DNA from: Planctomycetota bacterium
GTDB taxonomy: Bacteria > Planctomycetota > Phycisphaerae > Phycisphaerales > Phycisphaeraceae
Direction of reading: 5' to 3'
Assembly: GCA_039025855.1 (NCBI GenBank)
Contig: JBCCNL010000001.1
Span: 106,988-170,987 of the forward strand
DNA length: 64,000 nt
The notes beneath the pieces are model-generated. The model searched no databases and was not told the origin of the DNA. It was given only the letters and a program-made list of their open reading frames with translations. The translations under genes and the position numbers were made by a program. Below, piece by piece: positions 2,269-41,436 of the stretch. The first letter of the stretch is position 1. Every line of letters starts with the position of its first letter.

Positions 2269-2540
2269 CAGACCGCCAGACTCCTCAACCACCGAACCAC
2301 ACCACCGCATCGGCCCCGATGTACCGCCTTAATCGCGTGTGCCGACCCTCCAACCGCACAAAAGCCGCCCCACCCAGAAGCTGACACACTCACAGACATC
2401 CGACTCTCTCCGCCTCTCTTCGAGGGCCACCGTTCAAGCCCAATGGGGCTGATCCCACTGGGACGCGATGTCCCTCCCGCGGTGCGAGTATCGCACACCG
2501 ATGCGCCACCATCAACAAATGGTCGTCCGCCCACCGCATC

Positions 2541-2560
2541 GCAGGAAGCATGCTTCCCGC
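2541..2560 (-). terminator. Near-perfect 20-bp palindrome (core GGAAGCATGCTTCC) 30-50 nt downstream of the beta-helix gene stop; possible terminator or operator
   Basis: Read directly: gcaGGAAGCATGCTTCCcgc. A second small hairpin, GTGCGA-gta-TCGCAC, lies at 2482-2496. No U-tract follows, so this is not a canonical intrinsic terminator. Confidence 0.25.
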
Positions 2561-2589
2561 TCCATGGCCATGGCCCCCCGCCTACCCGA

Positions 2590-4269: not shown

Positions 4270-4400
4270 AGGGCTCACACATCCCATCGTCACCAGACTC
4301 CGCTCTGTTCCGTCAGGCCGCCGACCGTCTCACTCTATCAAGTCTCACCCCAGCCCCCCTACCCGTCCCCGTGATCGCCCCACCCCTTAGCCCCTAAAGC

Positions 4401-8439: not shown

Positions 8440-8514
8440 CCTTCTCCCGACGCCTGTTCAGGATGTCACATCAACCCCTCCCAAGCAACCCGTAATCCCA
8501 AACAAACCGTCACG

Positions 8515-9702: not shown

Positions 9703-9854
9703 CGCTCAGTCTTACGCTCAACTCCCCAAGGTCCGCCGAAGTCTACCCGCGCCCACCGCTAAACCAAGCCGCACCCCTCAGGCCCGCCACCCAGCTGCCC
9801 CAAGCTCACCCGCAAAGTCAAGTCGCCTCTATTGCCTAATCTTCCCAATCGACT

Positions 9855-12800
9855 ATGTTGCGGGCTAGACATCCCACGAAGCGGTTCAACGCTCAGCCGA
9901 GGAGAGAAGGCCCCATGTCGTCGCCCCCCAAACGCCACGCCCTCACGCCACCCGTAAACGCGCCGCTCATCGAATCCCTGGAGCCCAGGGTCCTCCTCTC
10001 GGCGACCCCGTCGGGAGCCACCCCCGCCTTCACCGACAACCTCCCCTGGGCCGAGACCTTCGAGTCGCTGCCCAACGGCACCGACGTCGACACCGGCGAC
10101 ACCGCCTGGTCCATCGATCGTTCCAACGCCCGACCGACCGCGCTCATCGCCGTCAGCAACGGCGCCTTCCGCGCCCAAGGCACCGGCGGCGAAGCCGTCT
10201 GGTGTTCGGATACCCTCGACATCTCGCAGCGCACCGGCGTCGACCTCTCACTCGATCTCGACGGCGCCGGCACCCTCGAAAACGCCGGTGATTTCCTCGA
10301 CTACCTCCGCGTCTACGCCGTCATCGACGGCGGCCCCGAACAGCTACTCGCCGAACGCGTCGGTAACATCAACAACGGCCAACCCGAAACCCTCACCGTT
10401 AACGGCCTCGCAGGCTCCACCCTCCAGATCGTCATCCGCACCCTTACCACAGGCGCCACCGAAGCGTACCTCTGGGACAACCTCACCCTCACACCCAACC
10501 CAGACGACCCGCCACCGCCGCCGCCACCCCCGACCGGCGACGAACTGCCGTGGACCGAGACCTTTGGCGGGCTGCCCAACGGCACCACCACAGACACCGG
10601 TACCACGGCATGGACCACCGACGGGTCGAACCTCGGCGGATCAGCACAAGTCGGCGTCAGCAACGGCACCTTCCGTGCCCAAGGCACCGGCGGCGAAGCC
10701 GTCTGGCTTTCTGAAACCCTCGACATCTCGCAGCGCACCGGCGTCGATCTCTCCCTCGACCTCGACGGTGCCGGCACCCTCGAAAACGCAGGCGATTTCC
10801 TCGACTACCTCCGCGTCTACGCCATTATCGACGGCGGCCCCGAACAGCTCCTCGCCGAACGCCTCGGCAACGTCAACAACGGCCAACCCGAAACCCTCAC
10901 CGTCAACGACCTCGCGGGCTCCACCCTCCAGATCGTCATCCGCACCCTCACCACAGGCTCCACTGAAGCCTACCTCTGGGACAACCTCACCCTCACACCC
11001 AACCCGGACGACCCGCCGCCGCCACCACCCAACAACGACCCGATCGCCAACAACGACTCGGCCACCGTCAACGAAAACGGCTCCATCCTCATCCCCGTCC
11101 TCAGCAACGACACCGACCCCGACAACGACACCCTCGCCATCACCGGCGTCACCGTCGACCCCACCCAGGGCCAGGCCACCGTCGAGGGCAATGCGATCCG
11201 CTACACCCCAGACACCGACACCAACGGCAGCGACACCTTCACCTACGCCATCAGCGACGGTAATGGCGGCAACGCCTCCGCCACGGTCGCCCTCACCATC
11301 ACACCTGCACCGCCACCGCCGCCGCCACCGCCACCCAGCGGCCTGCCGTGGAGCGAAACCTTCGCCGGGCTCCCCAACGGCACCACTACCGACACCGGCG
11401 ACACCGCCTGGTCCGTCGACGATTCGCAGGCCGGCGGCGGCGCCACCATCGGCGTCGATGGCGGCTGGTTCGCCGTCCGCAACACCGATGGCTTGGTGAC
11501 CTGGAGCAGCGAGGTCATCGACTTCGGCGGCGCCGCCACCGTCGACCTCACCTTGGACATCCAAGGCCTCGGCGGCCTCGATAGCTCCGGCCGATTCGCC
11601 GACGCGCTCCGCGTCTACACCCGCGTCGACGGCGGCCCCGAAACGCTCATCGCCGAACGCCTCGGCCGATTCAACAGCAGCAACCCGCAGACCCTCACCG
11701 TCGACGGCATCACCGGCTCCAGCCTGCAGGTCATCGTCCGCGCTTCCAACACCGCCAACAACGAGACCTACCGCTGGGACAACCTCACCGTCACCACCGT
11801 CGTCCCGCCGCCCCCGCCCGACCCACAGCCGGGCACCCTCGCCCTGGCCAGCAGCCAGTTCGCGGTCAATGAAGACGCCGGCGTCGTCACCATCGGCGTG
11901 ACCCGCACCGGCGGCAGCGACGGCGTGGTCTCCATCGACTACCTCACCGCCGAGGGCTCCGCCACCGCCGGCGACGACTTCACCCCTGTCAGCGGCACCC
12001 TCGTCTTCGCCGACGGCCAGACCTTCGCCAGCTTCGACGTGCCCATCCTGCAGGACACCGACTTCGAGACCGAAGAGACCTTCGCCGTCTCGCTCAACCG
12101 CGTCGGCGGCGAGGCCAACCTCGCCCAGCCCCGCACCGCCACCGTCACCCTCGCCGACGACGACACCGACACACCCACCCCCGGCACCGGCGACGGGCTC
12201 GCCGCCGTCTACTTCGATCAGCTCGGGTTCGCCGGCCCGTCCGTCACCCGTATCGATCCCGACGTCAACTTCGACTGGGCCTCCGGCTCACCCGACCCCG
12301 CGATCGGCAACAACACCTTCTCCGCCCGCTGGACCGGCCAGATCGAAGCCCTCTACTCCGAACGCTACACCTTCACCACCACGGCCGACGACGGCATCCG
12401 CCTCTGGGTCGACGACCAGCTCATCATCGACCGCTGGAACGACCAGACGGCCACCAGCTTCACCGGCACCATCGACCTCACCGCAGGCCAACGCGTCAAC
12501 CTCCGCCTCGAGTACTACGAGAACGGCGGCGCCGCCGTCGCCCAACTCGCCTGGCAGAGCGCCTCCCAAGCCTTCGAAATCGTCCCCACAAGCCAGCTCT
12601 ACAGCACCGGCTACACCGGCGATGTCGATCCGCCCACCAGCCTCAACCTCTCCGCCGAAACCATCATCACCGGGCTCAACCAGCCCACCGCCCTCTCCTT
12701 CCTCCCCAACGGCACCGCCCTCGTCGCCCAGAAGAACGGCGTCGTCCGGGCCTACCAGAACGGCCAACTCCTCAGCACCCCCTTCATCGACCTCAGCGAA

Positions 12801-13886
12801 GAGGTCAACGGCGTCCGTGACCGCGGCCTGCTCGGGCTCGCCGTCCACCCCGACTTCGACAACAACCCCTACGTCTACCTCCTCTACACCTACGACCCGC
12901 CCGAAACCCAAGGCCAGGCCGGCTTCGCCGGGCCCGACGGCCGCGGCTCCCGTGTCTCCCGGCTCCTCCGCGTCACCGCCGACCCCGCCACCGACTTCGC
13001 CACCGCCATCGCCAACTCCGGCGTCGTCATCCTCGGCACCAACAGCACCTACGAGAACATCGGCGCGCCCGACCGCGGCCAGTCCATCAACAACCCCTAC
13101 GGTGGCCTCGACGAAAACGGCAACTACATCCAGGACGTCCTGCCCATCGACTCGGAGTCCCACACCATCGGCGGACTCGCCTTCCTCCCCGACGGCTCGC
13201 TCATCGTCTCCAGCGGCGACGGCACCTCCTACGGCGCGGTCGACCCTCAGTCCTCACGCGTCCAGGACCTCGACTCGCTCAACGGCAAGATCCTCCGCAT
13301 CGACCCCATCACCGGCGACGGGCTGGCCGACAACCCCTTCTACACCGGCGACCCCGACGCCAACGCCTCCAAGGTCTGGGCCCTGGGCTTCCGCAACCCC
13401 TTCCGCATCGCCGTCAACCCCACCAACGGCAAGCTCTACGTCGGCGACGTCGGCTGGACCCGATGGGAAGAGGTCAACGAGGTCGTCCGCGGCGGCAACT
13501 ACGGCTGGCCCTGGTTCGAGGGCGGCAACGGTGCCCCGATCCAGACCAACGGCTACCGCGACCTCCAGGACGCCCAGGACTTCTACGCCGCCGGCACCCC
13601 CGTCGAGCCCTCGCTCTTCGCCCGCTCTCATTCCGACGGCGGCGTGGCCGTCGTCGTCGGCGATGTCTACACCGGCACCGTCTACGACAGCAGCTACGAC
13701 AACGCCCTGTTCTTCACCGACTACGGCACAGGTGCGATCGAAGCCCTGGTCTTCGACGATGCCGGCGGACTCGTCGGCGTCAACACCGTCACCGACCGCA
13801 TCGGCGTCGTCGTCGAAATGACCATGGGCCCCGACGGCACCATGTGGTACGTCGACATCACCGGCAGCGTCGGTCGGCTCGTGTAA
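9855..13886 (+). CDS. Large secreted multidomain protein: three copies of an unassigned ~165-aa module, a cadherin-like/VCBS-type segment, Calx-beta, PA14, and a PQQ-type glucose/sorbosone dehydrogenase beta-propeller
   Basis: N-terminal LIESLEPRVLLSA motif. Modules follow LPW.ETF..LPNGT..DTG.TAW...YLWDNLT, separated by poly-Pro linkers. Cadherin-like segment: NNDSATVNENGSILIPVLSNDTDPDNDTL. Calx-beta: VVSIDYLTAEGSATAGDDFTPVSGTLVFADGQT. PA14: FSARWTGQIEALYSERYTFTTTADDGIRLWVDDQLIIDRW. SGDH: LNQPTALSFLPNGTALVAQKNGVVRAY...RGLLGLAVHPDF. An alternative start is the ATG at 9915. Confidence 0.85.
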   Translation: MLRARHPTKRFNAQPRREGPMSSPPKRHALTPPVNAPLIESLEPRVLLSATPSGATPAFTDNLPWAETFESLPNGTDVDTGDTAWSIDRSNARPTALIAVSNGAFRAQGTGGEAVWCSDTLDISQRTGVDLSLDLDGAGTLENAGDFLDYLRVYAVIDGGPEQLLAERVGNINNGQPETLTVNGLAGSTLQIVIRTLTTGATEAYLWDNLTLTPNPDDPPPPPPPPTGDELPWTETFGGLPNGTTTDTGTTAWTTDGSNLGGSAQVGVSNGTFRAQGTGGEAVWLSETLDISQRTGVDLSLDLDGAGTLENAGDFLDYLRVYAIIDGGPEQLLAERLGNVNNGQPETLTVNDLAGSTLQIVIRTLTTGSTEAYLWDNLTLTPNPDDPPPPPPNNDPIANNDSATVNENGSILIPVLSNDTDPDNDTLAITGVTVDPTQGQATVEGNAIRYTPDTDTNGSDTFTYAISDGNGGNASATVALTITPAPPPPPPPPPSGLPWSETFAGLPNGTTTDTGDTAWSVDDSQAGGGATIGVDGGWFAVRNTDGLVTWSSEVIDFGGAATVDLTLDIQGLGGLDSSGRFADALRVYTRVDGGPETLIAERLGRFNSSNPQTLTVDGITGSSLQVIVRASNTANNETYRWDNLTVTTVVPPPPPDPQPGTLALASSQFAVNEDAGVVTIGVTRTGGSDGVVSIDYLTAEGSATAGDDFTPVSGTLVFADGQTFASFDVPILQDTDFETEETFAVSLNRVGGEANLAQPRTATVTLADDDTDTPTPGTGDGLAAVYFDQLGFAGPSVTRIDPDVNFDWASGSPDPAIGNNTFSARWTGQIEALYSERYTFTTTADDGIRLWVDDQLIIDRWNDQTATSFTGTIDLTAGQRVNLRLEYYENGGAAVAQLAWQSASQAFEIVPTSQLYSTGYTGDVDPPTSLNLSAETIITGLNQPTALSFLPNGTALVAQKNGVVRAYQNGQLLSTPFIDLSEEVNGVRDRGLLGLAVHPDFDNNPYVYLLYTYDPPETQGQAGFAGPDGRGSRVSRLLRVTADPATDFATAIANSGVVILGTNSTYENIGAPDRGQSINNPYGGLDENGNYIQDVLPIDSESHTIGGLAFLPDGSLIVSSGDGTSYGAVDPQSSRVQDLDSLNGKILRIDPITGDGLADNPFYTGDPDANASKVWALGFRNPFRIAVNPTNGKLYVGDVGWTRWEEVNEVVRGGNYGWPWFEGGNGAPIQTNGYRDLQDAQDFYAAGTPVEPSLFARSHSDGGVAVVVGDVYTGTVYDSSYDNALFFTDYGTGAIEALVFDDAGGLVGVNTVTDRIGVVVEMTMGPDGTMWYVDITGSVGRLV
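10041..11030 (+). repeat. Intragenic tandem duplication, period 504 bp (168 codons), two highly similar copies; a third divergent copy starts at about 11343
   Basis: Copy 1 starts at ctcccctgggccgagacc (10041) and copy 2 at ctgccgtggaccgagacc (10545). Long stretches are identical between copies, for example ggcaccggcggcgaagccgtctgg...ctcgacatctcgcagcgcaccggcgtcga...gatttcctcgactacctccgcgtctacgcc. Confidence 0.85.
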
Positions 13887-14197
13887 GACCCGGTGGGTCC
13901 AAAGCCCACTGCGGAGCGCGTTGGCGGACAACCGCTGGCCCAACCCGCCGCCGAAGTCACACGCGCTAGCGTCCCTGCTCTTATGTTTGGCCACTATCGC
14001 CATAGCATCACATCACATCAACCCGCTGAACACCCGCCAGACCCAACGGCTCTGATCCAGCACCGCGTCGGCCCTACAGGGACCCCATAAAAACACACCA
14101 CCGCTTCTGCACTTGCGCATTAATCCTGCTTGCCTCACTCGGTGCGGCAGCCGACGACCGATGAAGCAATGGTCGACACCACGCCGGTTAAGTCGGG

Positions 14198-30266: not shown

Positions 30267-30917
30267 ATGGCCGACTTCATCACAGCCTGCACGCAGAGCC
30301 CCACCAACCTCGTGTTGTCCGTGCTCCTGGTGCTCATCATGCTGTACTGGATCGTCGTCATCATCGGGGCCGTCGGCATGGACAGCCTCGACTTCGATTT
30401 CGACTTCGACGGCGATGTCGACCTCGCCCTCGACGGCCACACCAGCCTCTTCGGCGCAGGCATCGGCCTCTCGTTCCTCCGGTTCTTCCACGTCGGCACC
30501 GTGCCGCTGCTCATCCTGGTCTCCGTCTTCGTCCTCATGATGTGGGCCATCGGCGTGATCAGCTACCCGCTCATTGGCAACTGGGGCATCCTCCTCCAAC
30601 TGCTCATGCTGGTCCCCTTCGCGATCGGCGCAATCCTCCTGACCAAAGTCCTCACGCTGCCGCTTCGTGTCTTCTTCGACAAGCTCAAAGCCCAGGAAGC
30701 CGCCGAGCAAAGCGTCAACCTCATCGGCCAACGCTGCGAAGTCGTCTCCCTCACCGCCACCCACCGGCACGGGCAGGTCAAGGTCGCCACCGACGGCTCC
30801 CCCCTGCTGCTTAACGTCGTAACCCCCGACGAATCGATCACCCTGAACAAGGGCGACGAAGCCGTATTGATCTCCCAGGACGCCGACTCAAGCGTCTTCA
30901 CCATCCAGGGGTTTTAA
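30267..30917 (+). CDS. YqiJ/NfeD-like membrane protein (TM helices, acidic loop, C-terminal OB-like domain)
   Basis: MADFITACTQSPTNLVLSVLLVLIMLYWIVVIIGAVGMDSLDFDFDFDGDVDLALDGH..., then three more TM helices. The C-terminus, LIGQRCEVVSLTATHRHGQVKVATDGSPLLLNVV, resembles an NfeD-type OB fold. The gene lies immediately upstream of a flotillin gene. The track start is 30105; I prefer the ATG at 30267. Confidence 0.6.
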   Translation: MADFITACTQSPTNLVLSVLLVLIMLYWIVVIIGAVGMDSLDFDFDFDGDVDLALDGHTSLFGAGIGLSFLRFFHVGTVPLLILVSVFVLMMWAIGVISYPLIGNWGILLQLLMLVPFAIGAILLTKVLTLPLRVFFDKLKAQEAAEQSVNLIGQRCEVVSLTATHRHGQVKVATDGSPLLLNVVTPDESITLNKGDEAVLISQDADSSVFTIQGF

Positions 30918-30941: not shown

Positions 30942-33059
30942 ATGCTGCAACTCCTACCAACCCTCGGCCTCGCCACGCAGACGATGTTCGTCCTCGTTGT
31001 GGCCGGCATCGTCGGCTTCATCCTCGTCGTCGCGATCGTCGCCACCGTCGCCAAGTTCTACGTCAAGGTCGAGCCCGGGACCGCACTGGTCCGCCGCGGC
31101 CAGGGCGGCGGCCAGGTGTCCTTCAACGGCAAGCTGGTCATCCCCATCGCCCACCGCGCCGACATCATGGACATCTCCGTCCGGCGTATCGAGATCTACC
31201 GGCACGGCTCAGAGGGCCTGATCTGTAAAGACAACGTCCGCGCCGACATCAAGGTCGCCTTCTTCGTCCGCGTCAACAACGTCGACAAAGACGTCCTCCA
31301 GGTCGCCGACTCCATCGGCGTCAAGCGTGCGTCCCAGCTCGACGCCCTCGTCGAGCTCTTCGACGCCAAGTTCTCCGAAGCCCTGAAAACCGTCGGTAAG
31401 AAGTTCGACTTCACCGAGCTCTACACCGAACGCGAACGCTTCAAAGACGCCATCCTCGAACACCTCGGCACCGACCTCAACGGCTACGTCCTAGACGACG
31501 CCGCGATCGACTACCTCGAACAGACCGAACTCGGCAAGCTCGACCCCAAGAACATCCTCGACGCCGAGGGCATCAAGAAGATCACCGACCTCACGGCACG
31601 CGAAGCGATCCTTGCCAACGACATCTCCCGCGAGAAAGAAAAGACGATCACCAAGCAGGACGTCGAGGCCCGCGAGGCGATCCTCGAGCTCGAGCGCCAG
31701 CAGGCCGAGGCCGAGGCCAAGCAGGCCCGCGAGATCGCCACCGTCCAGGCCCGCGAGCAGGCCGAGTCCCAGAAAGTCGAAGAGGAGGAGCGGTACAAGT
31801 CGGAGAAGGCCCGCATCGCAACCGAAGAAGAGCTCGGTATCGCCGAAGAAAACAAGCTGCGGCAGATCCTCGTCGCCCAGCGGGCCAAGGAACGCACCGA
31901 CGCGGTCGAGACCGAGCGTGTCCAGCGTGAGCAGGGCCTCGAGATGACCGAACGCGAGCGCGTCGTGGAACTGGCCCGGATCGAGAAGGAGACCGCCCTT
32001 GAGGTCGAACGCAAGAAGATCCAGGACGTCATCCGCGAACGCGTGGTGGTCGAGCGGGCGGTGGTCGAGGAAGAGCAGAAGATCAAGGACACCGAAGAGA
32101 TCATGACTGCCGAGCGGGCCAAGAGCGTGCAGGTCACCACGGCCACGGCACAGGCGGAAGAAGAGAAGATCAAGGAAGTGAAGAAGGCCGAGGCCGCGAA
32201 GCTGGCGAGCCAGTTCGAGGCCGACGAGATCCTGATCGAGGCCGAGGCCAAGCGGGCCGCGGCTGAGAAGGAAGCGCTGGCCAAGATGAAGCTGGCCGAG
32301 GCCCGTCAGGCCGAAGCCGCCGCGGACGGCCTCGCCGAGGCCGAGGTCATGGACGCCAAGGCCGGGGCCGTTGAGAAGTACGGCACCGCCGAGGCCGAGG
32401 TCGTCCAACGCAAGCTCGAAGCCGAGGCCAAGGGCGACTTCGCCAAGGCCGAGGCCATCAAGGCCAAGGGCAGCGCCGAGGCCGACGTCATGCAGGCCAA
32501 GTACGCCGCCGAGGCCGACGGTGTCGCCGGCAAGGCCGAGGCCATGAAGAAGCTCGACGGTGTCGGCAAAGAACACGAAGAGTTCAAGCTCAACCTCGAC
32601 AAACAGCTCCAGGTCGAGCTCAAGCAGATCGACATCCACAAGGACATCGCGGCCGAACAGGCCAAGGTGCTCGGCGAAGCGCTCAAGTCCGCCAACATCG
32701 ACATCGTCGGCGGCGAGTCCGAGTTCTTCGACACCATCATCCACGCGATCACCAAGGGCAAACAGGTCGACCGGCTCGTCGACAACTCCGACCACCTCGC
32801 CCGGCTGTCCGACTCGCTCCTGTCCAGCAACGGCGACGGCACCACCCTCGCCGACCGTATCGGCGACTTCGTCTCCCGCTCCGGTATCGACAGCGACGAC
32901 GTCAAGAACCTCTCGATCGCCGCGCTCATCGGCAAGATGATCGCCGACTCCAGCGACCAGGGCGTCGTCAACGAGCTCAAGAACCTGCTGAGCCTGTCCA
33001 AAGCCGCCGGGTATGCCGACCAGAAACTCGCCAGCCTCGGCGTCAAGGCCCGCGCCTGA
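30942..33059 (+). CDS. Flotillin-like SPFH/Band-7 protein (YqiK-like) with long Glu/Ala-rich coiled coil
   Basis: N-terminal TM helix, then an SPFH pattern: KFYVKVEPGTALVRRGQGGGQVSFNGKLVIPIAHRADIMDISVRRIEIYRHGSEGLICKDNVRADIKVAFFVRV. The EA-rich flotillin-type coiled coil spans about 31.6-32.55 kb. Confidence 0.85.
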   Translation: MLQLLPTLGLATQTMFVLVVAGIVGFILVVAIVATVAKFYVKVEPGTALVRRGQGGGQVSFNGKLVIPIAHRADIMDISVRRIEIYRHGSEGLICKDNVRADIKVAFFVRVNNVDKDVLQVADSIGVKRASQLDALVELFDAKFSEALKTVGKKFDFTELYTERERFKDAILEHLGTDLNGYVLDDAAIDYLEQTELGKLDPKNILDAEGIKKITDLTAREAILANDISREKEKTITKQDVEAREAILELERQQAEAEAKQAREIATVQAREQAESQKVEEEERYKSEKARIATEEELGIAEENKLRQILVAQRAKERTDAVETERVQREQGLEMTERERVVELARIEKETALEVERKKIQDVIRERVVVERAVVEEEQKIKDTEEIMTAERAKSVQVTTATAQAEEEKIKEVKKAEAAKLASQFEADEILIEAEAKRAAAEKEALAKMKLAEARQAEAAADGLAEAEVMDAKAGAVEKYGTAEAEVVQRKLEAEAKGDFAKAEAIKAKGSAEADVMQAKYAAEADGVAGKAEAMKKLDGVGKEHEEFKLNLDKQLQVELKQIDIHKDIAAEQAKVLGEALKSANIDIVGGESEFFDTIIHAITKGKQVDRLVDNSDHLARLSDSLLSSNGDGTTLADRIGDFVSRSGIDSDDVKNLSIAALIGKMIADSSDQGVVNELKNLLSLSKAAGYADQKLASLGVKARA

Positions 33060-33114: not shown

Positions 33115-36100
33115 ATGGCTGAAACTCCAGAAGCCACATCCGAGGCCCTGCCGGAGGACCCCACCCCGTCCCAGGGTCCGAGCCACGACCAGATCGACCA
33201 GGGCGCCTACGAGGTCATCCGACGCCGGCTCGACACGCACGGCCGGGACCTCCGCACCCGCCTCGATCAGCTCAACGCCCGCCGCAAAGAAGTCTTCGGG
33301 TCCATCGACTTCAAGCTGATCGACAACGAGCGGATCACCACGGGCAACAACTGCGTCCCCCGCGACATCGCCGCCGTCGGCGACCGCTTCCTGATGGGCT
33401 TCAACGTCCACTTCGGGCTCAAATCCCACGTCGAGCTCGACGACGTCTTCGCGATCTACCGGTTCGACGGCAGCACCTTCCACGCCGACGACCTTTCGCT
33501 CCTCGATAACGAAGACTTCGCCAAGGACTTCACCGACCTGTTCCGTTTTTACAAGAACGCCAAGTTCGCCAAGTTCTTCCGCGAAGGCCCGCACGTCTAT
33601 ATGAAGTTCCACGTCGGGCGCGACGTCGATGACTTCAAGGCCTTCAAGTGGGCCATCGAGGGCGAGTCCCTCCGCTACATGGGCAACCGCTCCGACCACG
33701 AGGTCCGCTACCCCGAGCAACACGACTTCACCTGGACCCGCGCGACCCGCGAGATGCAGACCCAGGGCGCGTTCCCGCACTACTCGATCGAAGACATCGT
33801 CTTCGTCGAAGCGACAGGTGGCGACTTCACCATCAAGGTCGAAGACAACAGCAACACCGGCGAGGGCATCTACGTCGAGCCGGTCGAGAACGCCGACCAG
33901 TCCCTCGACGACGCCGAGATCCACTACTGCGTCGTCGGGCACATCGTCCTGCTCAAGGTTCGGCCCTATCAGGAACGCAACTTCCGGTACTACATCTTCA
34001 ACGCCAAGCTCCAGCAGGTGCACCGCGAAGACAGCCTCGGCGAGGCCTGCGTCCTCCTCCCCGAGAGCCACGGCCTAGTCTTCTCCCGCGGCTACTACCT
34101 CGCCTCCGGCAAATACCAACGCTTCCCCGGCATCCCCGACGACCTCATCTTCGAACGCAAGATCTCCGCGCCCAACGGCGAAGACTTCGCCTTCCTCTTC
34201 TATCACCGCCGGCAGGGCATCTACGTCATCCTCGCCTACAACCTGATCGACCAGTCGATCGACACCCCGCTGGTCACCAACGGCTACGCATTCTTCGGCG
34301 ACGGCCGCGTCGTGTTCTTCAAGACCCCCGAAGACGCCGAACCCCAGAAACACCACGCGATCCAGGTCTGGCAGACCCCCTTCGTCGGGCCCAACTACGT
34401 CGCGCCGCCCGGCGAGGAGTCCTACCTCTCGAAGATCGGCAACCGCGACATTGTGCGTGGCATGGCCGAGTGCGTTGAGGTCCTCGAACTGCTCTCCCGC
34501 GAAGACCTCTACTCCGACCTCTACGTCGATCTGGTCAAGACCACCTCCGACCTGCTCGACGCCTACTTCTGGCTCGACCACGACGAGTCAGCCAACCTCG
34601 CCGAGCCCCTGGGCGAGATCAAGACCGCCGCCGAAGCCGCGATCGGCGAGTACGAAAAGGTCACCCGGATCCGCCGAAACACCGAGCGGCAGATCGCTGC
34701 CGTGACCCGCGAGGCCGAAGACCTGGTCAACACCAACGCGACCCGGATCTACGACAACATCCTCGTCTACGTCGAAGCCCTCGCGTCGCTCCGAGAAGTC
34801 CGGGGCAAGACCATCGCGCTCAAGGAGCTGCGTTACGCCGACCTCAAGCACATCGACGAACTCGAAGAGCGGGTCAAGGACCAGACCGCGTCACTGTCGC
34901 AGCGCTGCGTGGACTTCCTGCTCGACGAGAAGTCGCTCACGCCCTACCAGGCCGCCGCCGAGGAGCACGACGCAAAGATCGACAGCCTGACCAAGGCGAC
35001 CGACGCGAAGGAGCTCGCCGAGCTGGTCCAGAAGAGCGCCGACGAGCTCGAGATGCTGATCGAGATCGTCGGCAACCTCCGCATCGAAGACACGACCCAC
35101 CGCACCGAGATCGTCGACAACATCTCAGCGATCTTCGGCCAGCTCAACGCCACCCGCACCCGCCTCCGCAACAAGCAGCAGGAGCTCGGCCGGGCCGAGG
35201 GCGTCTCCGAGTTCAACTCCCAGCTCAAGCTGCTGAACCAGTCTGTCGTCAACTACCTCGACCTGTCCGACGACCCGGAGAAGACCGAGCAGTACCTCAC
35301 GAAGGTGATGGTGCAGATCGAAGAGCTCGAGGGCCGGTTCGCCGAGTTCGACGAATTCGTGATCCAGCTCACCGAGAAGCGGGACGAGGTGTACACCGCG
35401 TTCGAGAACCGCAAGCTCCAGCTGGTCGAGAAGCGGAACAAGCGGGCCGACGCACTCGGCCAAGCGGCGGGCCGCATCCTCAGCAGCATCAAGTCCCGGG
35501 TCGACGGGATGGAGCAGATCAACGCGATCAACAGCTACTTCGCCAGCGACCTGATGATCGACAAGGTCCGCGACATCTGCGAACAGCTGGCCGAGCTCGA
35601 CGACACGGTCCGGGTCGACGACATCCAGTCCCGGCTCAAGGCGATCCGCGAGGACGCTGTCCGCCAGCTCAAGGACCGCCAGGACCTCCAGGCCGACGGC
35701 CGAAACACCATCCGCTTCGGGCGACACGTCTTCTCGGTCAACAACCAGGCCGTCGACCTCACCACGATCACCCGCGGCGGCGAGATGAAGCTGCACCTAA
35801 CCGGCACGCAGTTCTTCGAAGCCATCGAAGACCAGCAGCTGCTGGAAACACAAGACGTCTGGTCGCAGGAGGTCGTCTCGGAAGACACCACGGTCTACCG
35901 CGCCGAGTACCTCGCCTACCTCATGCACGAGCAGCTCACACGCGGCGAACCCGCCGAGCTGCAGGCCTTGCTAAAGGAGACCGACGACGACAGCGACCCG
36001 ATCCTCGACGCGGTGCGGTCCTTCATGGGGCCACGTTACAGCGAGGGCTACACCAAGGGCGTCCACGACGCCGACGCCGCCGTCCTCCTGCGGGCCCTGC

Positions 36101-38661
36101 TCGAGATGCACGGCTCTGTCGGCCTGCTCCGCTACCGCAGCGCCGCCCGGGCCATGGCCGGCTACTGGTGGGCCACGCTCGAAGACCGCCGGCTCCGCGA
36201 ACGCCTCACCCATCAGCTCGCCGGCTTCGGCACCGTCGGCGACGTCTTCGCCTCCGCCACCCAGCAACGCGCCTACATCGACGAGCTGTCCCAACACCTC
36301 CACCGCTTCGCCGAAGGCCTCGACCTTTTCGACGCATCGCTCTCATCAGAAGCGGGCGAGTACCTCTTCTATGAGCTGACCGAACCCAAAGACGGGCTCG
36401 TGGTCAGCCCCGAAGCGGCCGAGCTGTTCGACGCCTTCAACAACCACCTCCGCGGCAACCGCTCGCTGAAAAAGTTCCGCGACTCGATCGAAGCCCTCAA
36501 CGACGCCTGGCTCGCCCGCTTCGGCCTCATCCGCGACTGGGCCCACGCCTTCCTCAGCGAGAGCGACGACTTCCCGTCCGACATCTACCGCCACTACGCC
36601 GACGAGTTGGCCCTGCTCCTGCTGCACGGCAAGCCCCCGACCGACCGCATCCACACCGCGAGCGTCCGCCGTGAGCTCGACGGGCTCATCGGCTCACACG
36701 CCGTGATCGATCAGGGCCAATACAGCCTGGACTACAACGAGTTCCTCGCCCGCCTCCGCCACTTTGCCGGCCACACCGTCCCCCGCTTCGAGGCCTACAC
36801 CCACCTGAAACAACAGCTGCTTGATGCTGCCCGCGACGAGATGCGGCTGGACGAGTTCAAGCCCAAGGTCCTCACGTCCTTCGTCCGCAACCAGCTCATC
36901 GACAAGGTCTTCCTCCCACTGATCGGCGACAACCTCGCCAAGCAGATGGGCACCGCCGGGACGGACACCCGCACCGACCGCATGGGCCTGCTCCTGCTCA
37001 TCTCCCCGCCCGGCTACGGCAAGACCACCCTCATGGAGTACATCGCCAACCGCCTCGGCGTCATCTTCATGAAGATCAACGGCCCCGCGATCGGCCACTC
37101 CGTCACCTCCATCGACCCCGCCGAGGCCACCAACGCCGCCGCCCGCGAAGAGCTCGAAAAACTCAACCTCGCCTTCGAGATGGGCGACAACGTCGTGATC
37201 TACGTCGACGACATCCAGCACACCCACCCCGAGTTCCTGCAGAAGTTCATCAGCCTGTGTGACGCCCAGCGGCGCATCGAGGGCGTGTACAAGGGCAAGA
37301 CGCGGACCTACGACTTCCGCGGGCGGAAGGTCGCCGTGGTCATGGCGGGCAACCCGTACACCGAGTCGGGCGAGCGGTTCGCGATCCCCGACATGCTCGC
37401 CAACCGGGCCGACACCTACAACCTCGGCGACATCATCGGCGACCACGCCGAGGCCTTCAAGATGTCGTACCTCGAGAACTGCCTCACCTCAAACCCCGCG
37501 CTCAACGCCCTCGCGTCCCGCAGCCAGAAAGACGTCTATGGCGTGATCAAGATCGCGGAGACCGACAGCCGCGACGGCGTCGAGTTCGAGGGCAACTACG
37601 GCCGGGACGAGCTCGACGAAATGGTCAACGTGATGAAGAAGCTCATCACCGTCCGCGACGTCATCCTGAAGGTCAACCTGCAGTACATCGCCTCGGCCGG
37701 GCAGGAAGACGCCTACCGCACCGAACCCCCCTTCCAACTCCAGGGCTCGTACCGGAACATGAACCGCATCGCCGAGCGGGTGGTCCCCGTGATGAACGAC
37801 GCGGAACTGCAAACGCTCATCTCCTCGAGCTACGAGCAGGACGCGCAGACCCTGACAACCGGTGCCGAGGCCAACCTGCTCAAGCTCCGCGAGATGTTGG
37901 GCTGGATCACCGATGAGGAGGCCGAGCGTTGGGACGACATCAAGCGGACATTTGTCCGCAACAACTCGGTCAACGCGCTAGGCGGTGACGACAAGACGGC
38001 CGCGGTGCTGACGCAGATGGCCGGCCTCAATCAGGGCCTCGGCGACATCGGCAGCGCACTGTCGACCGGCCTCGATGCTTTGAAAGATGCGGATGCATCA
38101 ACGGATGAGGCGGAACCGATCGCGATCGATCTCGCCCCGCTCGCCGAGCAGATGGCGTCGTTCGCCCAGGGGCTCACGGGTATCCGCGAAGCCATGGCGA
38201 CTGTCGCCGAACGCGCCGCGGCGCCAGTCCCACAAGCACCCAAGCCCGTACCGCAGAACGGCCCCGTCGAAGCACGTTTCGACCAGGGCACGCTCGACGC
38301 GATCCAGGCCCTCACCCAGCAGATGGCCGAGCAGGCCCGGGCCGCGCCGCACTCGCCCGCTATCAACGGCGAAGTACCCGTCTCGAACCGCCCCACCGAC
38401 GAACCGGACGACCCCCCGCACGAGATCCGCGTGATCAACAAGATCCCCGCGACGTTCCTCTACGTGATGAAGGAGCAGTTCAAGCTGATGCAGGCCTGGA
38501 TGGAGCCGCTGACCCGGATCACCGCCGACCAGGACGACCAACTCAAGCAGATGCGGGGCTCCATCCAGCAGATCGTCTCGCGGTACGACGACATGATCCA
38601 ACGGCTCGAGAAGAAGCGGGCGTCCGCCGGAGACGAGATCGATGACGACGCCGATGCTTAG
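33115..38661 (+). CDS. 1,848-aa protein: N-terminal beta-rich domain, long coiled coil, MoxR/AAA_5-type AAA+ ATPase core, helical C-terminal region
   Basis: Walker A LLLISPPGYGKTTLMEY (about 37006-37029). Walker B VVIYVDDIQH. The MoxR-like segment is VAVVMAGNPYTESGERFAIPDMLANRADTYNLGD. Heptad-rich sequence runs about 34.6-35.7 kb. Clean codon bias throughout. Confidence 0.85.
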   Translation: MAETPEATSEALPEDPTPSQGPSHDQIDQGAYEVIRRRLDTHGRDLRTRLDQLNARRKEVFGSIDFKLIDNERITTGNNCVPRDIAAVGDRFLMGFNVHFGLKSHVELDDVFAIYRFDGSTFHADDLSLLDNEDFAKDFTDLFRFYKNAKFAKFFREGPHVYMKFHVGRDVDDFKAFKWAIEGESLRYMGNRSDHEVRYPEQHDFTWTRATREMQTQGAFPHYSIEDIVFVEATGGDFTIKVEDNSNTGEGIYVEPVENADQSLDDAEIHYCVVGHIVLLKVRPYQERNFRYYIFNAKLQQVHREDSLGEACVLLPESHGLVFSRGYYLASGKYQRFPGIPDDLIFERKISAPNGEDFAFLFYHRRQGIYVILAYNLIDQSIDTPLVTNGYAFFGDGRVVFFKTPEDAEPQKHHAIQVWQTPFVGPNYVAPPGEESYLSKIGNRDIVRGMAECVEVLELLSREDLYSDLYVDLVKTTSDLLDAYFWLDHDESANLAEPLGEIKTAAEAAIGEYEKVTRIRRNTERQIAAVTREAEDLVNTNATRIYDNILVYVEALASLREVRGKTIALKELRYADLKHIDELEERVKDQTASLSQRCVDFLLDEKSLTPYQAAAEEHDAKIDSLTKATDAKELAELVQKSADELEMLIEIVGNLRIEDTTHRTEIVDNISAIFGQLNATRTRLRNKQQELGRAEGVSEFNSQLKLLNQSVVNYLDLSDDPEKTEQYLTKVMVQIEELEGRFAEFDEFVIQLTEKRDEVYTAFENRKLQLVEKRNKRADALGQAAGRILSSIKSRVDGMEQINAINSYFASDLMIDKVRDICEQLAELDDTVRVDDIQSRLKAIREDAVRQLKDRQDLQADGRNTIRFGRHVFSVNNQAVDLTTITRGGEMKLHLTGTQFFEAIEDQQLLETQDVWSQEVVSEDTTVYRAEYLAYLMHEQLTRGEPAELQALLKETDDDSDPILDAVRSFMGPRYSEGYTKGVHDADAAVLLRALLEMHGSVGLLRYRSAARAMAGYWWATLEDRRLRERLTHQLAGFGTVGDVFASATQQRAYIDELSQHLHRFAEGLDLFDASLSSEAGEYLFYELTEPKDGLVVSPEAAELFDAFNNHLRGNRSLKKFRDSIEALNDAWLARFGLIRDWAHAFLSESDDFPSDIYRHYADELALLLLHGKPPTDRIHTASVRRELDGLIGSHAVIDQGQYSLDYNEFLARLRHFAGHTVPRFEAYTHLKQQLLDAARDEMRLDEFKPKVLTSFVRNQLIDKVFLPLIGDNLAKQMGTAGTDTRTDRMGLLLLISPPGYGKTTLMEYIANRLGVIFMKINGPAIGHSVTSIDPAEATNAAAREELEKLNLAFEMGDNVVIYVDDIQHTHPEFLQKFISLCDAQRRIEGVYKGKTRTYDFRGRKVAVVMAGNPYTESGERFAIPDMLANRADTYNLGDIIGDHAEAFKMSYLENCLTSNPALNALASRSQKDVYGVIKIAETDSRDGVEFEGNYGRDELDEMVNVMKKLITVRDVILKVNLQYIASAGQEDAYRTEPPFQLQGSYRNMNRIAERVVPVMNDAELQTLISSSYEQDAQTLTTGAEANLLKLREMLGWITDEEAERWDDIKRTFVRNNSVNALGGDDKTAAVLTQMAGLNQGLGDIGSALSTGLDALKDADASTDEAEPIAIDLAPLAEQMASFAQGLTGIREAMATVAERAAAPVPQAPKPVPQNGPVEARFDQGTLDAIQALTQQMAEQARAAPHSPAINGEVPVSNRPTDEPDDPPHEIRVINKIPATFLYVMKEQFKLMQAWMEPLTRITADQDDQLKQMRGSIQQIVSRYDDMIQRLEKKRASAGDEIDDDADA

Positions 38662-38771: not shown

Positions 38772-39593
38772 ATGTTCAAAGCCATCGGCCGATACTTCCG
38801 TGCACTGGGTTACCTCGTCACCGGCCGTATCGACGCCGCCCGCAGCGCCCTGTCCACCAGCCCCCACGTGGTCAACGCGACCTACGACCAGATCATCGAC
38901 GACAAGAAGAAGTCGATCCAGCAATACAAAGACGCCATCGCCCGGCTGATCGTGCAGCACGAGGGCAAGATGTCCAAGATCAAGGACGAGAGCGACTCGC
39001 TCAACCGCCTCGAACAGATGAAGGAAGGCGCCGCCGCCAAGGCCCGCTCCGTGGTGGCCGAGATGAAGGCCACCGGCGCGACGCTCGAGCAGATCAAGGC
39101 CGGCGAGGACTACCAGAAGTGCATGCTCGCCTACCAGGACTTCTCCTCGAAGATCGAAGAGAAGACCCCGCGGATCGCTGAGCTCGAATCCGATGTGAAG
39201 GAGATGGACGCGACGATCTCGGGGCACAAGCTGCAGCTCACCGAGATGCTGCGGGAGATCGAAAACCTCCGCGGCGAGCAGGCCGAGGCGGTCGCCGAGA
39301 TCATCACCGCCAAGGAGACCGCCGAGCTGAACGACATGCTCTCGGGCATCAGCAAGGACCGCACGTCGCGTGAGCTGGCCGACATGCGTCAGCTCCGCGA
39401 GGAGATGAAGGCCAAGGCCAAGGTCTCCAAGGAGCTGGCCGGCACCGACACGAAGGTGCAGGAGGACGAGTTCGTCCGGTATGCCCAGGAGAGCAAGACC
39501 TCCGATGAGTTCGACGCGTTGATCGGGCTGGCTGAAGAAGCGGACAACGCGACCCCCGACAACCCAGAGCGCGAGCCCCGGCTGCCGGAGTAG
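38772..39593 (+). CDS. PspA/IM30-family (ESCRT-III-like) protein
   Basis: N-terminal amphipathic helix MFKAIGRYFRALGYLV followed by about 230 aa of coiled coil organised like PspA (DQIIDDKKKSIQQYKDAIARLIVQHEGKMSKIK...LQLTEMLREIENLRGEQAEAVAEIITAKE). An AGGAG Shine-Dalgarno-like sequence lies 8 nt upstream of the ATG. Confidence 0.7.
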   Translation: MFKAIGRYFRALGYLVTGRIDAARSALSTSPHVVNATYDQIIDDKKKSIQQYKDAIARLIVQHEGKMSKIKDESDSLNRLEQMKEGAAAKARSVVAEMKATGATLEQIKAGEDYQKCMLAYQDFSSKIEEKTPRIAELESDVKEMDATISGHKLQLTEMLREIENLRGEQAEAVAEIITAKETAELNDMLSGISKDRTSRELADMRQLREEMKAKAKVSKELAGTDTKVQEDEFVRYAQESKTSDEFDALIGLAEEADNATPDNPEREPRLPE

Positions 39594-39648
39594 ACCACCA
39601 CTGGTCCAACTCCAGCGGGTGACGCGTGGTGCCTTTGTCCGGTCGTCG

Positions 39649-41436
39649 ATGAATACTCCCCCGCCACAACACGCCTTCTTCAGCGACCTCGCCCGCATGC
39701 TCAACGCCGGGCAGTCGCGCAGTGTCATGCTGACCGGCGAGGTCCACGACCTGTTCTACCTTGAGGCCGCCGACCGCTACGTCCCGCTGGTCCCCTACCT
39801 CTGCCGGCGATGCTCGGTCGAGGGCGTCGTCCCCCTGGTCTACGAGCTCAACGGCCCGATCCGCTGCACCAACGCCGGCGACCGCAGAACCCTCAAAGAA
39901 GCATGGGTCCGCTGGAAGACCGGCCAATCCCTCGACCAGCTCATCCTCCAATCGCTCAACGACGAGTCGGCCCGCCAGCGCCGCGAGTCCCTCGAAGAAC
40001 AGTTCGACCGACTCACCGCCGAGGCCGCCGGCCGACCCACCGCCGCCCTCGAGATGCTTCGGCAACTCACGCTCTGCTCCCGCGCACAAGCGGCACTCGG
40101 CGGCAAGCGGTTCCGGCTGCTCATCCTGGTCGAGGCCGCCGATATGCTCCTCCCCGCGGCCGACGGCGACATCACTCGGCTCAGCGCCAGCGACCGCCAG
40201 CGCGTCGCCATCTGCCAAGACTGGTTCAGCGATCCCGCCTTCATGGAGGGCGACGACAGCGTGGTACTCCTCGCCGAGTCCCGCAGCGCCATCCACCCCC
40301 GCGTCACCCGCCTGCCCCAGATGCTCACCGTCGAGGTCCCTGCCCCCGACGAGGCCCGGCGTGCCTTCTACATCGAACGCTTCACCCGCGACCGCCCGGT
40401 CAAAATCGACATGGGCACCGACGGCCTCGCCCGCCTCTCCGCCGGGCTTTCGCTGCACGCGTTGCGTCAGCTCCTGGTCGCCTCCGCCCACACCGGCACA
40501 TCCATCACCCACCACGCGGTCATCGACCTCGTCGAGCACCACATCACCAGCGCCCTCGGCGAGGGCGTCGTCGAGTTCAGCAAACCCTCGCACACCCTCG
40601 ACGATGTCGTGGGTCACCGCCGGCTGCGCGCGTTCCTCAACGACGAGCTGATCCCCCGCATCAAGTCGACCGGCGAAGACGCCCTGCCCGGCGCCGCGAT
40701 CGCCGGCCCAATCGGCTCGGGCAAGACCTTCGTCTTCGAGGCCGTCGCGGGCGGGCTCGGCCTCCCCGTCCTCGTGCTCAAGAACATCCGCAGCCAATAC
40801 TTCGGGCAGACCGACGTCATCTTCGAGAAGCTCCGACGCGTCCTCGAAGCGCTCGGCAAGGTCATCCTGTTTGTCGACGAGGCCGACACCCAGTTCGGCG
40901 GCGTCGGCGGCGACGCCCACCCCACCGAACGCCGGCTCACCGGCAAAATCCAGGCTTTGATGAGCGACCCCAAGCTCCGCGGCCGAGTCGTCTGGCTGCT
41001 CATGACCGCACGCATCGAACGCCTCAGCCCCGACATCCGACGCCCCGGCCGAGTGGGCGACCTCATCATCCCCGTGCTCGACCCCGCCCCGGGCAGCGAC
41101 GATCGCCGCGACTTCCTCCGCTGGGTCCTCAAGGGCGTCTTCGACCACCCCGACGACGCACTCCTCAATGAACTCGACCAGCTCACCCCCGGCTACTCCG
41201 CCGCCGCCTTCGCCGCCCTCCGCTCACTGCTCAAAGCCAAGGCCGCCGCGCAAGGCCAGCTCGACGCCGCCACCATCCGTGAGGTCGTCGCCGACGTCAT
41301 CCCCGCCGACATCGGCGACCAACGCGAACGCCAGACCCTCCAGGCCCTGCTCAACTGCACCCGCCGATCACTCCTGCCCGACCCGGACATCGACGAGTCC
41401 ACCCGCGAGGCGTGGCGGCGAGCCCTCGGCCAGTGA
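39649..41436 (+). CDS. Tandem AAA+ ATPase: degenerate N-terminal module plus classical-clade C-terminal AAA module
   Basis: C-terminal module: Walker A IAGPIGSGKTFV (about 40705-40728), Walker B VILFVDEAD (about 40861-40887), and second region of homology SPDIRRPGRVGDLIIPVLDP. The N-terminal module has a Walker-B-like FRLLILVEAADML but no GKT P-loop (VMLTGEVHD). The track start GTG is at 39619; I prefer the ATG at 39649. Confidence 0.85.
   Translation: MNTPPPQHAFFSDLARMLNAGQSRSVMLTGEVHDLFYLEAADRYVPLVPYLCRRCSVEGVVPLVYELNGPIRCTNAGDRRTLKEAWVRWKTGQSLDQLILQSLNDESARQRRESLEEQFDRLTAEAAGRPTAALEMLRQLTLCSRAQAALGGKRFRLLILVEAADMLLPAADGDITRLSASDRQRVAICQDWFSDPAFMEGDDSVVLLAESRSAIHPRVTRLPQMLTVEVPAPDEARRAFYIERFTRDRPVKIDMGTDGLARLSAGLSLHALRQLLVASAHTGTSITHHAVIDLVEHHITSALGEGVVEFSKPSHTLDDVVGHRRLRAFLNDELIPRIKSTGEDALPGAAIAGPIGSGKTFVFEAVAGGLGLPVLVLKNIRSQYFGQTDVIFEKLRRVLEALGKVILFVDEADTQFGGVGGDAHPTERRLTGKIQALMSDPKLRGRVVWLLMTARIERLSPDIRRPGRVGDLIIPVLDPAPGSDDRRDFLRWVLKGVFDHPDDALLNELDQLTPGYSAAAFAALRSLLKAKAAAQGQLDAATIREVVADVIPADIGDQRERQTLQALLNCTRRSLLPDPDIDESTREAWRRALGQ

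Follow-up and report, generated by a model that had tools for sequence, protein, structure and literature searches.

A giant propeller-AAA+ protein from a planctomycete is a candidate ATP-driven partner of the YqiJ-flotillin membrane scaffold

A 64,000-nucleotide (nt) stretch of DNA from a planctomycete of the Phycisphaeraceae (GenBank assembly GCA_039025855.1, contig JBCCNL010000001.1, positions 106,988 to 170,987 of the forward strand; hereafter the window, whose positions serve as coordinates throughout) contains an intact open reading frame (ORF) at 33115..38661 (+). It runs from ATG through stop and encodes a protein of 1,848 amino acids (aa) with a propeller-helical-AAA+ layout, here called the giant; an earlier note, made by a model from the sequence alone, had given the same extent. 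The best overall explanation of the giant, to which we assign a probability of about one half, is that it acts as a soluble, ATP-driven partner of a membrane scaffold made of an NfeD-like YqiJ protein and flotillin.

The giant is an ordinary ortholog within a large family known from computational work, whose function is uncharacterized. It is almost certainly orthologous to the propeller-AAA+ ATPase of a flotillin/YqiJ-linked operon described by comparative genomics (Ravi et al. 2024, mSystems, PMC11237479), with which it shares a beta-propeller, a coiled-coil/helical region, an AAA+ domain, and flotillin and YqiJ neighbors. That description occupies one sentence, which neither names the family nor offers a domain map, a class for the ATPase, or statistics. 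Our literature search found no paper naming DUF3686, the Pfam family of the N terminus, and no experimental study of the giant family. With the operon link already in the literature, the value of the window lies in confirmation and a sharper description rather than in discovery. Newly added here are a domain map, an assignment of the ATPase by structure together with the features that set it apart from MoxR, counts of gene linkage, and the finding that one planctomycete clade joins the flotillin triad and a PspA-like/CDC48-like pair in a single five-gene cluster.

The flotillin-YqiJ neighborhood and the spread of the family

The giant is encoded by the third of five same-strand genes in the window, separated by gaps of 24 to 110 nt. 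Its neighborhood was compared across 80 fetched loci, which were considered informative for flotillin when at least 2.5 kb of upstream flank was present. Of the 66 informative loci, 62 (~94%) have a flotillin homolog directly upstream of the giant and on its strand. A YqiJ homolog precedes flotillin in 54 of 63 informative loci, and 56 of the 80 loci contain a YqiJ homolog overall. The membrane-centered neighborhood that the earlier note had pointed out in the window is therefore a property of the family. The order YqiJ, flotillin, giant was seen in Planctomycetota, Bacteroidota, Verrucomicrobiota, Desulfobacterota, Clostridia, Kiritimatiellota, and Omnitrophota, and the cluster stays intact while the flanking genes differ completely between loci. 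The same arrangement is present in cultured organisms and on plasmids, including pQBR103 and Hymenobacter (RefSeq annotation), and abbreviated flotillin-YqiJ(-AAA+) operons have been reported as widespread (Ravi et al. 2024, PMC11237479). Because this near-universal adjacency spans at least seven phyla and is kept amid unrelated flanks, gene context makes it very probable that the function of the giant is tied to the flotillin/YqiJ scaffold. The regularity with which the gene follows flotillin also makes membrane scaffolds more likely than DNA as the substrate that it would remodel.

The distance between the flotillin and giant genes has a median of ~117 nt and equals 55 nt in the window. In about 21 loci the gap is longer, at 0.45 to 1.6 kb, and holds ORFs of 65 to 290 aa (including L017, L020, L021, L026, L028, L032, L035, L046, L052, L062, and L064). 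These ORFs form no single family, and no conserved extra gene was found in the gaps, which hold lineage-specific inserts. Operon boundaries in the window are drawn from spacing and strand, because promoter and terminator scans across the cluster returned nothing above chance.

The first gene of the cluster, at 30267..30917 (+) with its start chosen by homology, encodes a YqiJ/DUF1449-family (NfeD-like) membrane protein with multiple transmembrane (TM) segments. Its Pfam YqiJ_N match (E=6e-4) is below the cut-off; over its full length it is 34% identical (E=3e-29) to a Hymenobacter "DUF1449 family protein" in the same operon position. The reading frame is open from an ATG at 30105, and the 54 extra codons are Arg/Pro/Gly-rich and not hydrophobic. 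YqiJ/DUF1449 homology begins near the ATG at 30267 (MADFITAC...), so that the true start is ambiguous. The divergent intergenic region to the AMP-binding gene, which ends at 30086 (-), may accordingly measure ~180 nt rather than 18 nt.

The second gene, at 30942..33059 (+), encodes a 705-aa flotillin-like scaffold protein of the YqiK type, assigned by its Band_7 match and adjacency. The protein consists of a TM segment, an SPFH/Band-7 domain, a long E/A/K-rich coiled coil, and a C-terminal region, and is conserved along its whole length across phyla. Residues 1 to 260 match Band_7 above the cut-off (E=1.7e-10), and the full-length protein has no Pfam match, even at E=10, probably due to the E/A/K-rich coiled coil tripping the HMMER bias filter. 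Automated annotation will often leave such genes "hypothetical," as in the Hymenobacter locus (L082, 5619-7787).

The family itself is large. A search of 5.8 billion proteins (E<=1e-10) returned at least 1,489 relatives of the giant. The best 120 of these are mainly from Planctomycetota, measure 1,687 to 1,958 aa, are 52 to 82% identical to the giant at a query coverage of 89 to 100%, and show a matching Pfam set. Relatives occur in at least 566 species (scan of one genome per species) from at least seven phyla, among them the phyla and classes listed above. Thirteen plasmid, megaplasmid, or chromid records carry the family, from hosts including Pseudomonas fluorescens (pQBR103), Proteus, Vibrio, Photobacterium, Halomonas, Streptomyces, Nonomuraea, Deinococcus, and Hymenobacter. 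When aa 1 to 500 served as the query of an exhaustive search, 742 cluster representatives were recovered. In every near-full-length match the propeller domain is N-terminal in a protein of ~1,550 to 2,036 aa, which argues that the DUF3686-AAA+ giants form an essentially single-architecture family. The giant is collinear with its homologs over ~1,600 aa (DUF3686, DUF7902, and one C-terminal AAA+ module), and alignment occupancy is ~1.0 over aa 24 to 1621 in 75 homologs.

Domain architecture and ATPase class of the giant

Domain limits were derived from two overlapping AlphaFold2 models, both of monomers, built on 43-sequence alignments (mean predicted local distance difference test [pLDDT] scores of 81 and 79). 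Pfam DUF3686 (PF12458) covers aa 45 to 485, matching profile positions 1 to 448 of 448 (E=3.2e-179; score 596 bits, cut-off 25), and DUF7902 (PF25472) covers aa 607 to 690 (E=1e-24). The weak AAA, AAA_22, and AAA_5 matches fall at aa 1290 to 1416, with AAA_5 above the Pfam cut-off. The initial impression that only about 160 residues were recognizable was thus mistaken, since ~525 aa lie within DUF3686 and DUF7902, both of unknown function.

Following a disordered, variable start (aa 1 to 23; model and conservation), the giant has a conserved long N-terminal helix (aa 24 to 61, 33184..33297, +; model 1 and conservation) and a beta-propeller of ~28 strands, probably arranged in seven blades (aa 67 to 420, 33313..34374, +), which forms the DUF3686 core. 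The propeller is modeled at a pLDDT of ~85 to 90 and matches Sec12, Kelch, prolyl-oligopeptidase, the clathrin N-terminal domain, and WD40 proteins in Foldseek (probability ~1.0, ~400 columns). Its conservation score is 0.65, with 63 columns conserved at >=95% across phyla. A beta-rich N-terminal region, possibly a propeller, had been noticed in the sequence, and it can now be described as ~355 aa of all-beta structure with propeller matches.

The propeller is followed by a segmented helical arm that includes DUF7902 (aa 437 to 857, 34423..35685, +; Pfam, model, and conservation). Within these ~420 aa, the model contains at least 11 helices of 10 to 58 residues each, with short breaks between them. 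Heptad-type periodicity is moderately enriched, with 32% of windows above the 95th percentile of shuffles, and the conservation of the arms is 0.55 to 0.67. As the helices are segmented and the heptad enrichment is only moderate, a continuous coiled-coil rod is not supported, and the model argues for helical bundles or arms instead. The earlier note had described about 500 aa of heptad-rich coiled coil here; the helical character holds, and the length and regularity do not. The associated idea of a "tether or ruler" is not established, as it depends on one long coiled coil that is absent from the model.

Two further domains had been overlooked in the first description. These are a small beta-domain present in both models (aa 865 to 903, 35707..35823, +; conservation 0.65) and a confidently modeled all-helical domain (aa 929 to 1171, 35899..36627, +; pLDDT mostly >90 in model 2). 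The latter is the least conserved folded part of the giant (0.41), and a Pfam scan of it gave nothing significant. A beta-hairpin and long helices then lead into the ATPase (aa 1185 to 1278, 36667..36948, +; model and conservation), in a segment that closes with the highly conserved motif FVRN...P..G.NLAKQ.G.

The AAA+ module comprises an alpha/beta subdomain (aa 1285 to 1440, 36967..37434, +; Pfam, motifs, model, and conservation) and a helical lid with a sensor-2-like GSYRNMNR at 1544 to 1551 (aa 1445 to 1621, 37447..37977, +; motifs, model, and conservation). It is the only such module in the protein (aa ~1285 to 1621), as first proposed. Its motifs are a Walker A PPGYGKTT (1298 to 1305), a Walker B YVDDIQH with the acidic pair at 1365 and 1366, a sensor-1 AGNP with N1413, a pre-sensor-1 hairpin (1387 to 1400), and an Arg finger in NRAD (R1431). 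Walker A and sensor-1 were found in all of 80 homologs, which come from many phyla; 79 of these homologs have the Arg-finger context LxNRxD, and 77 have the Walker B pattern hhhhDDIQH. By far the most conserved part of the giant is the alpha/beta subdomain, in which 81 of 156 columns are conserved at >=95% across phyla. The predicted nucleotide site is intact and extremely conserved, and R1431 is consistent with an oligomeric, inter-subunit active site.

The C-terminal tail (aa 1626 to 1848, 37990..38661, +; model and conservation) consists of helices, a Pro/Ala-rich, disordered, low-confidence linker (aa ~1700 to 1778), and a terminal helical hairpin (1779 to 1838), in line with the Pro/Ala-rich linker and helical tail read from the sequence before. 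Past aa 1661 the tail is lineage-specific, with an occupancy of 0.25 to 0.38 across phyla, and most non-planctomycete homologs stop near aa 1650. In the corresponding part of the window (38098-38658, aa 1662 to 1848), the planctomycete terminal hairpin is conserved, with invariant P1778, Q1788, F1789, W1795, P1798, and Y1824 and strong amphipathic periodicity. A lineage-specific partner could dock on this hairpin. A scan for transmembrane-like segments found none in the giant, which is most likely a cytoplasmic, soluble predicted ATPase.

The clade of the AAA+ module was assigned from predicted structure, because sequence methods could not place it. Searches with phmmer and a family profile against the PDB gave a weak match to p97/RuvB limited to the stretch from the P-loop to beta2, and NCBIfam gave RuvB/CDC48 matches only, far below threshold. 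In the comparison of predicted structures, the module scored 16.9 with CbbQ, 16.0 with NorQ, 14.5 with dynein, and 13.3 with midasin, and no more than 12.9 with every other AAA+ clade. Foldseek agrees that CbbQ/NorQ are nearest. The hallmarks of MoxR proteins, which are typically ~250 to 500 aa, have been set out for NorQ (PMC13036017): the pore is lined by a long helix-2 beta-hairpin and entered by the finger of a VWA partner, and Walker B carries DE. The giant does have the pre-sensor-1 beta-hairpin seen in MoxR (strands aa 1387 to 1392 and 1395 to 1400, high pLDDT in model 2). However, no helix-2 beta-hairpin is present in the model, in which a confident, conserved loop (aa 1323 to 1340, NGPAIGHSVTSIDPAEATNA) lies instead between beta2 (1317 to 1322) and alpha2 (1341 to 1356). 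No VWA/MIDAS partner was found in the five-gene cluster or among the recurrent neighbor families of the 80 loci, and the Walker B reads hhhhDD in the giant and in the 77 homologs counted above, not the canonical hhhhDE. The "MoxR-type core" of the earlier note therefore stands as the nearest structural relationship and falls short as a classification: sequence gives no clade and three MoxR hallmarks are missing. On the basis of the models, we describe the module as MoxR/dynein-class (AAA_5-like) and do not count the giant among the MoxR proteins.

Walker B motifs with DD in a DDIQ(F/H) context typify DnaA, an AAA+ ATPase that works slowly and as a switch. By analogy, the DnaA-type Walker B offers a lead for the giant.

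The kinship to CbbQ and NorQ raises the alternative that the giant is a maturation chaperone in the manner of MoxR proteins, for which the flotillin microdomain would serve as a workbench for cofactor insertion into, or assembly of, a membrane complex (compare RavA, NorQ, and CbbQ). MoxR proteins remodel specific target complexes (PMC13036017), and SPFH proteins have been proposed to aid complex assembly (PMC11237479), both of which agree with such a role. The neighbors in the 80 loci, however, include neither a VWA/MIDAS partner nor a conserved candidate for a client gene, and the helix-2 hairpin that defines MoxR is not in the model, making this alternative quite unlikely.

PspA genes, regulators, and the DNA repair label

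All other neighbors in the 80 loci were clustered, and the recurrent families were annotated. Canonical PspA (PF04012, E=2e-44) is encoded in 16 of 80 loci and CesT_Tir_1 in 14 of 80, both directly upstream of YqiJ. DUF4178, DUF350, and spermine synthase genes occur downstream of the giant in a few loci. Beyond YqiJ, flotillin, and these lineage-specific PspA modules, no neighbor family was found in more than 16 of the 80 loci. A linkage to both flotillin and PspA had been anticipated from the window; the family upholds the first, and the second is lineage-specific. The complete operon, CesT_Tir_1-PspA-YqiJ-flotillin-giant, was seen in Bacteroidota loci and on pQBR103.

A regulator with HTH_3 and Peptidase_S24 domains (LexA/CI-like) is encoded divergently upstream of this complete operon in 14 loci, including L037 (3838-4647, -) and L082 (2580-3365, -); the loci checked belong to Bacteroidota. 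This regulator suggests a cleavage-controlled, stress-inducible expression of the operon. In Hymenobacter (L082), the order is a LexA-family regulator followed by Tir chaperone, PspA, DUF1449, hypothetical, and "DNA repair ATPase" genes. On pQBR103 of P. fluorescens SBW25 (NC_009444.1, 84437-97641; L081), the giant is the last of ten same-strand genes, after YjfI, PspA, a rhomboid protease, DUF2491, DUF350, DUF1190, glutathionylspermidine synthase, a hypothetical protein, and SPFH. The hypothetical protein holds the position of YqiJ elsewhere. The whole PspA/polyamine/flotillin module is thus plasmid-borne in a genetically tractable host. Other tractable hosts carrying the family are Proteus mirabilis, Vibrio campbellii, Streptomyces, and Hymenobacter.

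The window cluster contains neither CesT/Tir nor canonical PspA, and it is for this reason an "abbreviated" operon, followed by a different pair of PspA-like and AAA genes. The first of the pair, at 38772..39593 (+), encodes a 273-aa coiled-coil protein that is a probable divergent relative of PspA/IM30 (ESCRT-III superfamily), judged by its sub-threshold Pfam matches. The protein itself matches PspA_IM30 below the cut-off (E=0.0077), 7 of 20 members of its family match PspA_IM30 (best E=5e-6), and some sources name its homologs PspA. A firm PspA label was dropped, as the hhalign comparison with yjfJ-type PspA was not significant (probability 1.4%, E=0.037). The second gene, at 39619..41436 (+), encodes a protein of 605 aa whose C-terminal AAA domain is classical and CDC48/VAT-like (Pfam AAA, E=1e-14; PDB sequence matches to VAT/Afg2/Cdc48, E=6e-23). 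The N-terminal half of this protein gave no family match; by eye it looks like a degenerate AAA domain in which MLTGEVHD replaces the P-loop. Bacterial PspA genes paired with a protein of two AAA+ domains, the N-terminal one inactive, have been described in a preprint by Ravi et al., and the 605-aa protein fits that description. Both associations of the window are therefore already published at the level of comparative genomics.

The PspA-like gene and second AAA gene of the window occur together in only one or two of the 80 loci. The five-gene cluster recurs with unrelated flanks in the planctomycete contigs L009, L083/L084, and L085, and the PspA-like/AAA pairs (AAA proteins of 575 to 614 aa) lie at 15535-18378 in L009, 10001-12673 in L083, and 8746-11515 in L085, as well as in L084. 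From these gene orders, PspA genes appear to have been recruited independently at two positions, as CesT/Tir-PspA upstream and as PspA-like plus AAA downstream. The PspA-like/CDC48-like pair resembles an ESCRT-III/Vps4-type pairing.

These PspA genes bear on a second alternative, in which the giant would be a bacterial functional analog of Vps4 that disassembles or recycles a PspA/ESCRT-III-type polymer, with flotillin only as its platform. Canonical PspA and CesT/Tir share the operon in 14 to 16 of 80 loci, PspA is also found with the giant on pQBR103 and in Hymenobacter, and a PspA-like gene directly follows the giant in the window. A Vps4-like ATPase for PspA appears, moreover, to be absent in bacteria according to reviews (PMC7619361, PMC10936438). 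Yet PspA is missing from ~64 of 80 loci, whereas flotillin is nearly constant, and the PspA-like gene of the window has its own adjacent CDC48-like AAA gene, which is the better Vps4 analog. In addition, the giant has no match to an MIT-like or VAT_N domain and is, by structure, of the MoxR/dynein class rather than the classical clade. We therefore regard a Vps4 role for the giant as unlikely.

The plasmid records and the LexA/CI-like regulator could also be taken as marks of an anti-phage or other conflict system in which sensed membrane damage sets off a response, and the size and multidomain NTPase architecture of the giant resemble those of some defense proteins. All five cluster genes were scanned with PADLOC v2.0.0, which covers systems described up to 2023. 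The giant gave only a mad8 match (E=0.003) over the P-loop region, and its partners gave generic P-loop and coiled-coil matches, in other words noise; a defense role was dropped as the leading reading on this result. The neighbors are housekeeping or transport genes rather than defense islands, no effector (nuclease, protease, or toxin) is linked, and conservation is high over the full length and across phyla, without the rapid diversification typical of conflict systems. A defense function is accordingly improbable.

Named relatives among the best 120 are called "DNA repair ATPase," "ATPase involved in DNA repair," or "MoxR-like ATPase," which bears out the expectation of a vague DNA repair label in the earlier note. 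Taken literally, the label would make the giant a DNA repair ATPase with an SMC/Rad50-like long coiled coil. It is favored by the inherited name (the Pfam PF12458 description and source names), by a weak RuvB_N match to the P-loop below the cut-off (E=3e-5), and by the LexA-family regulator beside some operons, which may itself have encouraged the label. No ABC/SMC head and no DNA-binding fold were found in the giant, and the RuvB similarity is confined to the P-loop. The recurrent neighbors in the 80 loci are YqiJ, flotillin, PspA, CesT/Tir, the HTH-S24 regulator, DUF4178, DUF350, and spermine synthase, among which no repair or recombination gene recurs. One SMC_N gene beside L083 is divergent and non-recurrent. 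As an annotation, "DNA repair" is effectively refuted, since the giant shows no SMC/Rad50/RecN/RuvB-type head, no DNA-binding domain, and no repair neighborhood, and such a function is extremely improbable. The clash between this label and the membrane context, which had been remarked upon from the window, is confirmed, and neither of the two outcomes that would have spoken against it was found: homologs lie outside DNA repair contexts, and the N terminus is a propeller rather than a nucleic acid-binding fold. The name constitutes a clear case of misleading propagated annotation.

Elsewhere in the window, positions 2001-14000 show a GC skew of -0.26 to -0.49, an AT skew of up to 0.41, and a GC content of up to 0.72, with the extreme at 4001-8000. 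Such a compositional bias between strands is unusual and possibly reflects one or more very large minus-strand genes of biased amino acid composition.

A probable scaffold-linked ATPase and its comparison with known systems

A tentative mechanism can be proposed for the giant as a remodeler of the YqiJ-flotillin scaffold, by analogy to MoxR remodelers, HflK/C-FtsH, and solved SPFH cages; we rate this specific mechanism as possible, though somewhat short of an even chance. YqiJ and flotillin would assemble at the inner membrane into an SPFH cage on its cytoplasmic side, in the manner of the solved SPFH-NfeD, HflK/C, and flotillin assemblies. The giant would oligomerize via its AAA+ module into a ring with an inter-subunit active site, as its invariant Arg finger suggests, from which six propeller-tipped helical arms project. 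The propellers could bind either to an element that recurs in the cage or to clients inside it. ATP binding and hydrolysis, which the DD Walker B probably makes slow and switch-like, would act by way of the arms and the conserved linker ahead of the AAA+ module, so that the scaffold is opened, assembled, or disassembled, or clients are extracted. PspA-type polymers would act at the same membrane sites in lineages that co-encode them; SPFH proteins have been reported to recruit PspA (PMC8581546). In this genome, the PspA-like protein would probably be serviced by the separate CDC48-like AAA protein.

Apart from gene order, a partnership with the scaffold is favored by the propeller, which is a protein interaction fold, by the proximity of the module to the remodeling chaperones CbbQ and NorQ, by catalytic motifs that are near-invariant across phyla, and by the lack of a TM segment in the giant. 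Several points weigh against it. In 4 of the 66 informative loci, no flotillin gene is adjacent and the upstream genes are unrelated, hence the giant can exist without a neighboring partner gene. Its coupling to flotillin, oligomeric state, and ATPase activity are all predicted from gene order and models. The cluster lacks the VWA adaptor through which typical MoxR proteins act, and the pore-lining helix-2 hairpin of MoxR is not seen in the model. Adjacency, finally, fits a protein that acts on flotillin as well as one that acts with flotillin on something else.

In its most far-reaching form, which we consider doubtful, this reading would make the giant a machine dedicated to building and dismantling bacterial flotillin (SPFH) cages at the expense of energy, the first of its kind, in the shape of a ~1.2-MDa ring with propeller-tipped arms gripping the cage. 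In this planctomycete lineage, the five genes would then constitute a bacterial membrane repair module that combines an SPFH scaffold with an ESCRT-III/Vps4-like pair, and, if true, the latter would be the pair that reviews call missing from bacteria. For the broader question of how bacteria build, open, and recycle their flotillin and PspA assemblies, the giant family offers a concrete and widespread candidate.

Compared with the full operon of Ravi et al., the window lacks the CesT/Tir-PspA dyad and has PspA-like and CDC48-like AAA genes downstream. The nearest structural relatives of the AAA+ module, CbbQ and NorQ (Pfam AAA_5; PDB 6l1q and 9qh4), differ from the giant in having a VWA partner, a helix-2 hairpin, and DE in Walker B, whereas the giant measures 1,848 aa with a 1,280-aa N-terminal extension. 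Dynein and midasin/Rea1 likewise combine AAA_5 modules with long helical appendages. However, each of their chains concatenates six AAA modules, while the giant has one and would need to oligomerize. It also lacks a stalk and microtubule-binding domain or a MIDAS domain, and its long Foldseek alignments to dynein have a very low TM-score of 0.15.

Archaeal genomes encode pairs of PspA-like and VAT_N-Vps4-like proteins with SPFH neighbors (Makarova et al. 2024, PMC10936438). ESCRT-III/Vps4 and these archaeal pairs follow the same logic as the window cluster, with the gene for a membrane-remodeling polymer beside an AAA+ gene and SPFH nearby. This likeness fits the 605-aa AAA protein of the window and not the giant, which has neither an MIT nor a VAT_N domain and falls outside the classical AAA clade.

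A further comparison concerns FtsH. To our knowledge, no energy-dependent factor linked to SPFH scaffolds is known besides FtsH within HflK/C cages. The AAA protease FtsH belongs to the classical clade and is anchored in the membrane, and the cage of HflK/C lies in the periplasm, whereas the giant is predicted to be soluble, is of the MoxR/dynein class, and has no protease domain; its coupling to the scaffold is inferred only from gene order. HflK/C-FtsH nonetheless provides a precedent, in which an AAA+ hexamer of the bacterial inner membrane is coupled, both physically and in function, to an SPFH scaffold.

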